Source: a plasmid
Strand: one strand, 5' to 3'
DNA length: 64,000 nucleotides
Assembly: GCF_988242995.1 (NCBI RefSeq)
Contig: NZ_OZ547044.1
Each line of letters begins with the position of its first letter. Position 1 is the stretch's first letter. The position numbers are program-made. Of this stretch, positions 59,801-62,800 are shown piece by piece.

Positions 59801-62800
59801 TCTTTCAGACGTGATTTTCTGACCACAATCACAGGGGCTTTTTTCTCGGTCATAAGGGACTCCGGGGGCAGTGTTGTCACCGTCTGATTATATCATAATA
59901 CCATGTTTCTGTTACGAATTATGTATCCGGAATGTCTTGTTTTTCGGGTTTTCAGATGCGCGGTGTACGAAACTATCAGGCTGTCGGTTTGTGGTTTTGC
60001 TTACTTTCGGACACACAGGCGGCATGGTGTACGTAATCGCTCGATTTCGGACACAGAAACGCTGTAGCCCCGCAATCCGAGGGTTCGCTAATAGCCGTCT
60101 GGTCAAAAAGTAGTCTTAGCGTAAGTTATTTTCCCTTTTCCAGGCGGCCCCCTGATGCGCGTAGCGCATGGGAGCGAAGCGATACGACCGCGCAGTATTG
60201 CGCGGGGTTTTTCTTTTCCGGCTCAGAAGTGAGTGAATCACTTAAGTCAAATGACCAGAAGCAGGTTAATACGGTAGTTCACCCCCCCTTCCTGCCAGAC
60301 AATAGCGGATTGTCAGTGTCACAGGAGGTTCTGTACGCGGTCGGAGTGGTCACGACAAGGCGCAGCCGCCGTCGGGGCGTATCTCCGCGTTAGCGGGCCG
60401 TGAGGGCCGCTTACGAGCGTGTTACTCAATACTTACAGCGACACTACTTACCGCGACGCACAACTATAGTTACAACACCCATCATTAAAAGCGACACTAC
60501 TCCCGGCCTTCGGCCGGGGGCGGCGGCGCTTTTCAGTGGTGGGGAGGGGCTCCTGGCTGGCAAACCGGCGCCGGTTTTATGACGGATTTCCTTTTGAATG
60601 CTGTAACTAATGTGGTTCTCTGGTCGGGGCCCGTCGCGAAGCGATGGGCGCTACTTTTATCTGAGCGACGCGGACGCTTGCGGCCGCTGTAAGCGAAGGC
60701 CTCACTGAGTTATTCACAGAGCCGGCAAAGACAAAAGATCTCCCTGCAGCTTGCAATGCAGGGGATTAAAAAAGTGGGGTAAGACTATTTTGCAGGTTTG
60801 CTGTTACCCTTTTGCTAAATTCCCTGTTTATTCATTTGCGGGTTTTTGTGGATAAGTGAAAACCTGGTGCGAACGTCACAGGGTATACGTGCTCAAACCA
60901 GCGATGGTCCGACGGCCGGAACGTCAGATGGATAAAAACCAGGCAATTTCATGAATCCGGACAAACGCCAAAAGCCCCGGGCAGGGGCATAGAAAAAATG
61001 GCACTGTTGCAAAGTTAGCGATGAGGCAGCCTTTTGTCTTATTCAAAGGCCTTACATTTCAAAAACTCTGCTTACCAGGCGCATTTCGCCCAGGGGATCA
61101 CCATAATAAAATGCTGAGGCCTGGCCTTTGCGTAGTGCACGCATCACCTCAATACCTTTGATGGTGGCGTAAGCCGTCTTCATGGATTTAAATCCCAGCG
61201 TGGCGCCGATTATCCGTTTCAGTTTGCCATGATCGCATTCAATCACGTTGTTCCGGTACTTAATCTGTCGGTGTTCAACGTCAGACGGGCACCGGCCTTC
61301 GCGTTTGAGCAGAGCAAGCGCGCGACCATAGGCGGGCGCTTTATCCGTGTTGATGAATCGCGGGATCTGCCACTTCTTCACGTTGTTGAGGATTTTACCC
61401 AGAAACCGGTATGCAGCTTTGCTGTTACGACGGGAGGAGAGATAAAAATCGACAGTGCGGCCCCGGCTGTCGACGGCCCGGTACAGATACGCCCAGCGGC
61501 CATTGACCTTCACGTAGGTTTCATCCATGTGCCACGGGCAAAGATCGGAAGGGTTACGCCAGTACCAGCGCAGCCGTTTTTCCATTTCAGGCGCATAACG
61601 CTGAACCCAGCGGTAAATCGTGGAGTGATCGACATTCACTCCGCGTTCAGCCAGCATCTCCTGCAGCTCACGGTAACTGATGCCGTATTTGCAGTACCAG
61701 CGTACGGCCCACAGAATGATGTCACGCTGAAAATGCCGGCCTTTGAATGGGTTCATGTACAGCTCCATCAGCAAAAGGGGATGATAAGTTTATCACCACC
61801 GACTATTTGCAACAGTGCCGATCTGGCGACTGGATCGTCTGAGCCGTTCCCTGAAAGACTTGATTGAAATGGTTAAACATCTGGAGTCGAAAGGTATCGG
61901 TTTAAAAAGCCTTCAGGAATCCATCGACACAACCTCCAGTTCCGGAATGCTGATATTTCATCTTTTTGGGGCACTGGCAGAATTTGAACGCAACCTGACA
62001 AGAGAGAGAACTCAGGCCGGGCTTCAGGCAGCACGAGCCAGAGGACGTAAGGGCGGCAGGCCGAAAACACTGAGTAAGGATAAACAGGCCCTTGCTGTTC
62101 AACTCTATAACGAGAAAAAACATACAGTTGCGCAGATTTGTGTGTTGATGGGGATATCGAGGCCAACGCTGTACAAATACATAGAGTCAGCCAGGTTGTT
62201 CAAGAAATGAACTTAGCGTACGTTTTCGTACGGTTGGGCTTCAAACCCCTCAGTCAATGACGCGGGAAGAGTATCTTTCTCTCTTCGCCAATGAAGCCGA
62301 TCGAAATATTGCCTACGACCCGGAACCCATCGGTCGCTATAACGTCGCCCCGGGTACCAGGGTGTTACTTCTGAGCGAACGCGACGAACAGCTGCAGCTC
62401 GATCCGGTTCACTGGGGTTACGCACCAGGGTGGTGGGATAAACCGCCATTGATTAATGCCCGGGTTGAGACCGCAGCCAGCAGCAGGATGTTTAAACCTC
62501 TTTGGCAGCACGGTCGGGCGATCTGCTTTGCTGATGGCTGGTTTGAATGGAAGCGTGAAGGAGACAAGAAGCAGCCCTATTTCATCCACCGTAAAGATGG
62601 CCAGCCAATCCTCATGGCCGCGATCGGAAGCACTCCGTTTGAGCGTGGTGATGAGGCGGAAGGGTTTCTGATTGTCACGGCCGCGGCTGATAAAGGTCTC
62701 GTTGATATCCATGATCGGCGCCCGCTTGTCCTGGTACCGGACGCCGCCCGGGAGTGGATGAAACAGGACGTTTCGGGTAAGGAGGCTGAAGAAATTGCTG

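Follow-up and report, generated by a model that had tools for sequence, protein, structure and literature searches.

A probable IncFII-family replication-origin module, separated from repA by IS26, beside a ProQ/FinO-family gene

The window (the whole stretch of plasmid DNA that was analyzed, 64,000 nucleotides) contains a 1.1-kb region, 59881-60999, bounded on one side by a ProQ/FinO-family gene (59290-59853, minus strand, with its ATG at 59853) and on the other by a copy of IS26, the end of which forms the right edge of the region at 60999/61000. An earlier note on this DNA correctly placed the region upstream of the ProQ/FinO-family gene and described it as free of open reading frames over 80 codons; the longest is exactly 80 amino acids (59871-60113, from a GTG start). 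The two 12-mer repeats, the hairpin with a T-run, and the stem-loops that the note listed are all present, none of them more than a few bases away from the positions it gave. Three pieces with no relation to one another make up the region, namely the predicted ProQ/FinO promoter, a Tn3-family relic, and an IncFII origin module. Its features are as follows.

59887-59915, minus strand: sigma-70-type promoter-like site of the ProQ/FinO-family gene (-35 GTAACA, 17-nt spacer, TG-extended -10 TATAAT)
59964-60152, minus strand: one-ended Tn3-family transposon relic, not part of the origin
60188-60215, plus strand: intrinsic-terminator-like hairpin CCGCGCAGTATTGCGCGG followed by GGTTTTTCTT, facing the origin and belonging to the IncFII(K)-lineage backbone
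60332-60423, plus strand: G block, a structured and nearly invariant stretch immediately past terRR, recognized by conservation and position
60463-60485, minus strand: terRR, ATGATGGGTGTTGTAACTATAGT, a predicted Tus-binding site that would stop forks from the repA/oriR side
60487-60533, both strands: bidirectional intrinsic-terminator hairpin (AAAAGCG...CCCGGCC-TTC-GGCCGGG...CGCTTTT) between the Ter sites
60591-60613, plus strand: terRL-like site, CTTTTGAATGCTGTAACTAATGT, inverted relative to terRR, that would stop forks moving toward oriR
60628-60650, origin side of terRL: conserved hairpin CCCATCGC-TTC-GCGACGGG, terminator-like on the plus strand
60668-60855, minus strand: oriR core of this RepA type, with DnaA box, low-GC segment, and palindrome
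60856-60999, minus strand: remnant of the CIS spacer (repA-oriR), ending at the IS26 target duplication
61000-61819, plus strand: IS26 copy severing the origin from repA, with an inverted partner copy at 10365-11184

The promoter-like site at 59887-59915 is the only one in 59700-61100, with 10 of 12 hexamer matches and a TG before the -10 element, and it is the putative promoter of the ProQ/FinO-family gene. The suggestion that the region could be a promoter region for a divergent gene holds for about 30 bp at this left edge, but the gene is not divergent, being co-oriented with its ancestral neighbor, repA.

The second piece carries a 38-bp terminal inverted repeat, GGGGGCCGCCTGGAAAAGGGAAAATAACTTACGCTAAG, at 60115-60152, with its outer end at 60152. 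Like the 38-bp repeats of the Tn3/Tn21 family, it fits the pattern GGGG...ACG(C/T)TAAG (here GGGG...ACGCTAAG), and homology to other plasmids breaks at its outer end. Backbone homology to pINF078-VP (L008) ends exactly at 60153, and in another relative (L005) the same module stops at the same repeat with a different flank outside it. The interior of roughly 150 bp includes four TGT(A/C)CG(A/T)AA half-sites, and 59964-60152 is also found, at 70 to 86% identity, in unrelated plasmids that were replicon typed as IncN, IncHI2, and Col3M. Same-orientation repeats of the 60115-60152 end occur at 27414, 58658, and 62212. Unlike Tn3/Tn21-family elements, the segment has a single end, and no inverted partner repeat near 59964, transposase, or 5-bp target duplication was found for it; it is therefore classed as a relic. 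A Xer/cer-type site at 59962-60055, suggested by inverted GTGT(A/C)CG(A/T)AA arms, was rejected, as these arms differ from XerC/XerD half-sites and the segment is transposon interior.

A transfer origin was one of the roles first proposed for the region, which would then be a conjugative oriT/nic site or, as part of the leading region, a single-strand promoter or initiation site active in the recipient after transfer. The plasmid is of the F-type conjugative kind, with traI, traX, and finO in the window, the region has hairpins and repeats, and 59964-60152 also lies in the leading region of an IncN plasmid. However, the IncN occurrence is explained by a Tn3-type repeat beside IS4321, and a Frpo-like long hairpin in 59940-60170 was rejected because single-stranded DNA structure there is no better than that of shuffles (z = -0.5 and -0.25). 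The F-type oriT is located upstream of traM, whereas the homologous stretch in relatives comes after repA, past finO at the distal end of the tra operon. A search allowing up to two mismatches found no F-type nic motif in the region, and the number of matches across the window equals that expected by chance. A role in transfer is consequently very improbable.

The third piece, 60153-60999 on the minus strand, corresponds to the stretch directly downstream of repA in IncFII plasmids. Plasmid pKPCKP060 is 98.6% identical across the whole 1,119 bp (59881-60999), and its counterpart begins at the ProQ/FinO gene and reaches to within 16 bp of the repA stop. About 400 to 500 bp 3' of an IncFII-family repA, and in the same orientation as that gene, a homologous stretch lies in 11 of 12 annotated relatives inspected (pKPCKP060, pKpQIL-IT, R100, pINF078-VP, pKTa005_5, CRKP_26, and the Enterobacter hormaechei, TW10598, K. 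michiganensis, Erwinia, and E. asburiae plasmids; the exception is L011). R100 has a gene-free gap of roughly 940 bp after repA, as in the region. These comparisons supply the identity and anatomy of the piece, which we read, with a probability of about 0.9, as the cis-acting replication module of an IncFII-family theta replicon (R1/R100-type, IncFII(K) lineage); the figure covers the explanation as a whole, that is, the replication module together with the left-hand pieces and the severance by IS26. Replication-origin modules of this kind are already known, and the region itself brings no new biology.

From the former repA stop, the elements are ordered as CIS spacer, oriR core, conserved hairpin, terRL, terminator hairpin, terRR, and G block. 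Position after repA, element order, and spacing to within about 15 nt are shared with oriR of R1/R100, as is the distal half at 72 to 89% identity. The distances, counted in the window from a virtual (reconstructed) repA stop, are as follows.

DnaA box: 162 nt from the repA stop, versus 176 nt in R100
terRL: 407 nt, versus 406 nt in R100
GC hairpin: 499 nt, versus 505 nt in R100
terRR: 541 nt, versus 547 nt in R100
G block: 595 nt, versus 598 nt in R100

According to the mechanism described in the R1/R100 literature, RepA from the adjacent gene would, in the intact replicon, bind oriR with DnaA and open the low-GC segment, after which DnaB would be loaded. The leading strand would be primed beyond terRR, and replication would proceed one way round the plasmid. 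Tus at terRL would halt the fork running back to oriR, and Tus at terRR would halt the main fork after a full circle, a stop that would prevent over-replication and rolling-circle multimers. Binding of RepA, DnaA, Tus, and primase at the module is in every case a prediction from the DNA sequence.

The oriR core includes a DnaA box, TTATCCACA, at 60847-60855, which is the sole perfect copy in the window. The box lies at the repA-proximal edge and, measured from the reconstructed repA stop, falls in the interval of about 150 to 180 bp 3' of repA, on the same strand, that is expected of an R1/R100-type oriR; it is followed by a predicted initiator-binding region and a low-GC region (32 to 42% GC at 60750-60850). 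The palindrome reported near 60735, CCCTGCAGCTTGCAATGCAGGG, is real and falls inside this low-GC origin core, but it sits at 60742-60763. In R1, oriR1 comprises 188 bp with a consensus DnaA box, and RepA is bound beside the box (PMC5883639); the 188-bp extent provisionally assigned to the core here (60668-60855) is that of R1, carried over to the window. The oriR core covaries with the RepA allele: 60653-60999 tracks RepA type, and pKpQIL matches 59881-60652 only. Host-factor sites are 72 to 89% identical to those of distant replicons, in contrast to 30 to 34% for the CIS region and origin core, which in the window carry the specificity of a 337-amino-acid RepA_IncFII_LM protein and in this respect differ from R1/R100. 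As the origin core is only about 34% identical to that of R100, initiator sites are not transferable by homology. The CIS spacer remnant also contains a hairpin, GCCCCTGCCCGGGGC, followed by TTTT, at 60970-60988.

Distal to the origin core are two sites related to the Ter sequences at which Tus arrests forks. The core of terRR, GTTGTAACTA, is the sole perfect copy in the window and agrees with the Ter consensus, including G6 and T9; terRR is kept in 10 of 12 aligned replicons, with a block identity of 89%. The only other match to the Ter core in the window is that of terRL, which has one mismatch (GCTGTAACTA, with C for T at position 11) and retains G6 and T9. The C11 variant is found in 6 of the 12 aligned replicons and distinguishes the window from R1/R100. 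T at core position 11 is not known to vary in the Ter sites of Escherichia coli, and Tus binding at terRL may be weak. The two cores are 133 bp apart and inverted, with the minimal oriR on one side and the candidate leading-strand start on the other, which is the geometry of a fork trap; their polarity is assigned from established TerB/tus and Tus-Ter knowledge, which we take to apply in the window. As in the E. coli and R6K Tus-Ter traps, there are two inverted sites with a GTTGTAACTA core (one mismatch in terRL) and G6, such that a fork would pass the first and stop at the second. Unlike those traps, the pair is plasmid borne, closely spaced, and beside an origin, where Tus-Ter would enforce unidirectional replication rather than mark an antipodal terminus. 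The geometry agrees with that of R1, in which terRL and terRR separate the minimal oriR from the point where the leading strand starts and have fork-stopping roles (PMC10331603). The candidates of the earlier note did not include a vegetative IncFII origin equipped with a Tus/Ter fork trap.

The GC-rich hairpin with a T-run lies between the Ter sites, with its tip, CCCGGCCTTCGGCCGGG, at 60502-60518 and TTTT at 60529-60532. It is part of an extended stem (60487-60533) with a predicted RNA fold of -29.2 kcal/mol (z = -4.5, equalled by none of 200 shuffles), an invariant outer helix, and a GC helix with two covarying pairs (CG to GC in four and two sequences). The 12-mer copies of AGCGACACTACT at 60437-60448 and 60490-60501 flank terRR, one on each side, and the second copy is part of the lower-coordinate arm of the terminator stem (60487-60508). 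An exact 12-mer repeat is expected about 0.04 times by chance in 1.1 kb. The exact repeat is lineage specific, with R100-type origins sharing only AGT...TCGCT, and the 12-mers were rejected as a general paired protein site, since copies within a plasmid are 0.68 identical, barely above the 0.62 found between plasmids. On the origin side of terRL, the helix at 60628-60650 is 97.6% paired and has one covarying pair (UA to CG in four sequences). The stem-loops noted near 60150-60230 are at 60157-60171 and 60188-60205, the latter followed by a T-run. The terminator-like hairpin at 60188-60215 is kept in pINF078-VP and pKTa005_5, stands beyond the G block in place of the hairpin found in R100, and would shield the origin against incoming transcription. 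Over the predicted helices, 97% of cells are paired, versus 35 to 42% in slid controls, and the covariation score, from four pairs, was reached by none of 500 shuffles.

The same hairpins could matter as RNA 3' ends if a structured RNA bound by the adjacent ProQ/FinO-family protein were encoded by the region or terminated in it, the candidate ligands being repA read-through that stops at 60487-60533 and a plus-strand RNA that stops at 60188-60215. Hairpins of the terminator type are bound by ProQ/FinO proteins, the region has two terminator-like ones, and IncFII origins repeatedly have a ProQ/FinO gene, a DUF2913 gene, or both on their 3' side. There is also the precedent of PcnR, a ProQ/FinO protein of IncI2 plasmids that controls RepA expression through leader mRNA binding (PMC8053102). 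However, the hairpins are kept in R100-type replicons without a nearby ProQ/FinO gene, there is no plus-strand promoter-like site in 59700-61100, and the sequence upstream of the plus-strand terminator is the transposon relic common to unrelated plasmids. A structured regulatory RNA partnering the FinO-like protein, as first suggested, also found no Rfam match in 58500-62000 at E <= 1, and the known antisense RNA of the replicon, CopA, is located elsewhere, at 8660-8748, upstream of repA, as the sole Rfam match in the window at the gathering threshold. An RNA ligand is thus an unlikely account of the region. It is likewise improbable that 60487-60533 and 60188-60215 are 3' ends, of repA read-through or incoming transcripts, bound by the ProQ/FinO-family protein acting as a PcnR/FopA-like copy-number regulator of IncFII(K); if this were true, a replicon-linked regulator would account for the repeated presence of ProQ/FinO and DUF2913 genes beside IncFII origins.

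In the replication module, the G block is the most distal of the ordered elements, and its conserved flank extends to about 60282. It is 87% identical to seven distant replicons, compared with the 30 to 34% of the CIS region and origin core. Its helices 4 to 7 are 97 to 100% paired and mostly invariant, with one covarying pair, and its single-stranded DNA fold has z = -2.4 on the plus strand and z = -0.9 on the minus strand. On the basis of position and conservation only, the G block is a candidate primase-dependent single-strand initiation site (G site) for the leading strand; the assignment draws partly on work reportedly published by Masai and Arai in 1989. Of the single-strand initiation role proposed for the whole region, this sub-segment, 60332-60423, is the part for which it probably holds, being near invariant and at the R1/R100 leading-strand start, where synthesis begins just beyond the two ter sites (PMC10331603). 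Like the initiation site of phage G4, the G block is compact, highly conserved, and rich in predicted stem-loops. Its primary sequence, however, does not significantly resemble the G4 complementary-strand origin (3880-4020), for which the Smith-Waterman score was 20 (shuffles: mean 18.7, maximum 33); homology to G4 is accordingly not claimed. A blastn search of 60280-60560 against phages returned chance matches only, and no conserved CTG was present in the expected place on either strand in the alignment of origin-flank replicons.

Conservation of this part of the region could also be that of a small protein gene resembling the repA4 open reading frame annotated in NR1/R100. In R100, a 128-amino-acid open reading frame spans the ter sites and the G block, and the repA4 region of NR1 affects stable inheritance. 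The same span in the window, however, has open reading frames of 49 to 60 amino acids at most, and the 12 aligned replicons carry different ones, in differing frames and strands. Conservation among these replicons is patchy, with blocks of 72 to 89% identity between spacers of 31 to 64% that contain indels, a pattern that fits binding sites and not a reading frame. A repA4-like coding gene was rejected on this lack of a conserved open reading frame and is scarcely credible here.

The state of the replicon differs from that of R1/R100 in that the origin is detached from repA through IS26. It is now 50 kb from repA and inverted, and the IS26 copy at 10365-11184 abuts a truncated repA. Through residue 328 of 337, the RepA of the window is identical to that of pKPCKP060, the last nine codons being lost; it matches NF040977 (RepA_IncFII_LM) with 302 bits, where the cutoff is 70, and also matches Pfam IncFII_repA. 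The 8-bp IS26 target duplication, ATTTTTTC, at 60992-60999 occurs once in pKPCKP060; in pGSU10-3-2 it adjoins IS26 at the repA end, and in the window it adjoins IS26 at the origin end. This arrangement is explained by an insertion of IS26 16 bp after the repA stop, and then an inversion between inverted IS26 copies and a 53-bp deletion. The same truncated repA-IS26 junction had no match in PLSDB. We infer from the distance of the origin from repA, and from the loss of the last nine codons, that the module is probably not the working origin of this plasmid. A second replicon, expected to be of the IncFIB(K) type, is presumed from relatives (p203 is typed as IncFIB), and the Ter pair may still arrest forks started at another replicon. 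That the IncFII(K) replicon is broken matters for replicon typing, for predicting incompatibility, and for the question of which replicon maintains this KPC resistance plasmid of Klebsiella. The kilobase is unannotated in the plasmid annotation tables inspected, though 60270-60660 is matched by at least 5,000 plasmid records, mostly from Klebsiella and Escherichia, and oriR, terRL, terRR, the terminator, and the candidate G site could each be labeled in them.

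The gene-free stretch at 59881-60999 was correctly observed in the earlier note and is ordinary: it is the long-characterised, already known IncFII origin module (60153-60999, read on the minus strand), together with a transposon scar and a promoter. The longest open reading frame is exactly 80 amino acids in the ORF listing, in line with the statement that none exceeds 80 codons, and the structures described are present: the 12-mer AGCGACACTACT at 60437-60448 and 60490-60501, the GC hairpin at 60502-60518 followed by TTTT, the palindrome at 60742-60763, and additional stem-loops at 60157-60171 and 60188-60205. 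The left neighbor (59290-59853, minus strand) belongs to the ProQ/FinO family, as proposed; its product gave weak, below-cutoff matches to ProQ and FinO models, and its homologs in relatives are annotated as family members. The right edge is unnatural, base 61000 being the start of an IS26 terminal repeat.

A megablast search with the 1,119-bp stretch matched at least 5,000 plasmids, chiefly from Klebsiella and Escherichia, and among the matches listed four records were full length, at 98.2 to 98.6% identity. Twelve relatives were inspected, seven sampled down the match ranking and five others; 11 carried an IncFII-family repA gene approximately 400 to 500 bp upstream of the homologous stretch, the exception being a fragment adjoining an F-type repE gene and Tn21. 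In pKPCKP060, the homologous stretch begins at the ProQ/FinO gene and ends 16 bp short of the stop codon of repA, which is on the same strand. In R100, an equivalent gene-free gap of approximately 940 bp follows repA and aligns with the window minus strand. The pKpQIL-type plasmids matched only 59881-60652, at 99.6%; their origin-proximal third differs and a different RepA allele adjoins it. Because pKpQIL differs in both, the repA-proximal part travels with the initiator type, as expected of an origin core. The RepA protein of the window (9380-10364, plus strand) matches NF040977 (RepA_IncFII_LM; 302 bits) and Pfam IncFII_repA. Upstream of repA, at 8660-8748 on the minus strand, is the CopA antisense RNA (Rfam RF00042, 85.9 bits); no other Rfam family attains its gathering score anywhere in the window. 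A transfer origin, one of the roles first suggested for the region, is excluded by the synteny in relatives and by the lack of an F-type nic motif in the region, and a regulatory RNA gene, another of those roles, is not supported.

Elements of the origin region and of the stretch to its left. Offsets are counted from the repA stop (window versus R100); identities are for the window versus seven distant replicons.
CIS spacer between repA and oriR: identity 30%
Origin core: identity 34%
DnaA box, 60847-60855: offset 162 versus 176 nt; identity 84%
terRL, core 60600-60609, plus strand, one mismatch to the Ter core: offset 407 versus 406 nt; identity 72%
CCCC...ACTGAAAAGCG motif: identity 86%
GC hairpin: offset 499 versus 505 nt; identity 79%
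terRR, core 60467-60476, minus strand, perfect match to the Ter core: offset 541 versus 547 nt; identity with the TCGCTTTTAAT flank 89%
G block (conserved block), 60332-60423: offset 595 versus 598 nt; identity 87%
Terminator-like hairpin, 60188-60215, plus strand: part of the backbone of the IncFII(K) lineage
Promoter-like site of the ProQ/FinO gene with a TG-extended -10 element, 59887-59915

An alignment of 12 IncFII-type replicons showed conserved islands amid a variable background, a pattern that would be expected if the variable parts coevolve with their own RepA and host factors read the conserved ones. The DnaA box is the sole perfect copy in the 64-kb window. In R1, oriR1 spans 188 bp and has a consensus DnaA box, next to which RepA is bound (PMC5883639). 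The palindrome at 60742-60763 falls in the low-GC core of the origin belonging to this RepA type and may be an initiator site.

Only two Ter-core matches were found in the 64-kb window, inverted and 133 bp apart. The terRR 23-mer is ATGATGGGTGTTGTAACTATAGT and that of terRL is CTTTTGAATGCTGTAACTAATGT; G6 and T9 are retained in both. In the terRL-like site (60591-60613, plus strand), position 11 of the Ter core is C rather than T, a variant shared by 6 of the 12 replicons in the alignment, those of the Klebsiella lineage and of Erwinia. A replication fork entering Ter at position 1 is blocked (the TerB/Tus polarity, with its C6 lock). From this polarity, terRL is predicted to stop forks returning toward oriR and terRR those arriving via repA and oriR. 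The arrangement is that described for R1, where both sites lie after the minimal oriR but ahead of the point where the leading strand starts, the counterclockwise fork is blocked almost at once by terRL, the clockwise fork is halted by terRR after one full circle, and rolling-circle forms and multimers arise without Tus (PMC10331603).

The two 12-mer copies flank terRR, one on each side, and the copy at 60490-60501 contributes to the lower-coordinate arm (60487-60508) of a long hairpin at 60487-60533, of which the GC hairpin is the tip. This hairpin has a folding energy of -29.2 kcal/mol (z = -4.5; matched by 0 of 200 shuffles); its outer helix, AAAAGCG/CGCTTTT, is invariant, and its GC helix contains two covarying pairs. 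It resembles a bidirectional intrinsic terminator placed between the two Ter sites. As an exact repeat, the 12-mer is lineage specific, R100-type origins having AGT...TCGCT only. The structure specified across the region was 97% paired, versus 35 to 42% with the partners slid, and contained four covarying pairs with a covariation score reached by 0 of 500 shuffles, most pairs never varying and thus being uninformative for or against the structure. Between terRL and the terminator hairpin, ACTGAAAAGCG (60527-60537, minus strand), which follows a C-rich run, varies little or not at all across the 12 aligned IncFII origins. It loosely resembles the phage G4 primer start ACTGCAAAGC, a likeness without statistical support, and we know of no function for this motif.

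No part of the region is better conserved than the G block beyond terRR. This block folds into stem-loops, with z = -2.4 on the plus strand (the template of a leading strand moving away from oriR) and z = -0.9 on the minus strand. Its location is the one given in the literature for the start of the leading strand. Similarity of the block to the phage G4 origin was not above chance, and no conserved CTG was found at an obvious start position; its position and conservation make it a candidate single-strand initiation (G) site. R100 carries a 128-amino-acid open reading frame across this area, downstream of the origin (40032-40418), historically named repA4. None of the other 11 replicons in the alignment has a conserved counterpart of this frame, and coding therefore does not explain the conservation of the area.

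The left 270 bp have a different history. Positions 59964-60152 are 70 to 86% identical to unrelated plasmids, including IncN and IncHI2 plasmids and a 4.27-kb qnrD1 plasmid, and terminate in a 38-bp Tn3/Tn21-type terminal repeat (60115-60152). The IncFII backbone is common to pINF078-VP up to exactly 60153 and diverges beyond, and a plasmid of Citrobacter has this module stopping at the same repeat with a different outside flank. Since neither a partner repeat nor a transposase for this module is present, it is a relic. Single-stranded structure in the relic was not beyond that of shuffles. Within the relic, four TGT(A/C)CG(A/T)AA half-sites at 59962-60055 form two inverted pairs with arms 33 and 8 bp apart, possibly an operator or a site of the res kind. 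Three more 38-bp Tn3-family terminal repeats, one Tn1721-type and two Tn3-like, occur on the minus strand at 27414-27451, 58658-58695, and 62212-62249, in the same orientation as the repeat of the relic.

A ProQ/FinO-family gene, a DUF2913 gene (58695-59306, minus strand, in the window), or the two together recur just downstream of IncFII-type origins with different RepA lineages (Klebsiella michiganensis, Escherichia coli IncFIC, Enterobacter asburiae, and p203), which suggests a replicon-linked function, possibly copy number control like that of PcnR. As the IncI2 plasmid protein PcnR suggests by analogy (PMC8053102), and given this recurrence, the terminator hairpins might set the 3' ends of RNAs bound by the neighboring ProQ/FinO protein; however, the same hairpins are kept in R100-type replicons without a ProQ/FinO-type gene, leaving this as a small residual possibility.

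The origin segment now lies 50 kb from repA and is inverted relative to it. The sequence ...TTTAGCT ATTTTTTC TATGCC... is uninterrupted in pKPCKP060; in pGSU10-3-2, IS26 comes after ATTTTTTC, on the repA side, and in the window it comes before ATTTTTTC, on the origin side, so IS26 was inserted 16 bp past the repA stop, duplicating these 8 bp. The IS26 copies at repA (10365-11184) and at the origin (61000-61819) are mutually inverted, which is consistent with an IS26-mediated inversion. The origin-IS26 junction is found in approximately 280 PLSDB records, one of which, p203, is typed as IncFIB only. Compared with relatives in which IS26 sits 16 bp beyond the repA stop, repA has suffered a further 53-bp deletion at IS26 and lost its last nine codons, a junction not present in PLSDB. 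IncFII RepA acts preferentially in cis, via the CIS spacer, as described for R1, which makes it most likely that the origin does not fire in this plasmid; another replicon beyond the window presumably maintains the plasmid. The Ter pair could still trap forks, needing host Tus alone. Between repA and the inverted origin, seven complete IS26 copies (15 terminal-repeat matches; 10365-61819) structure a resistance region of approximately 50 kb.
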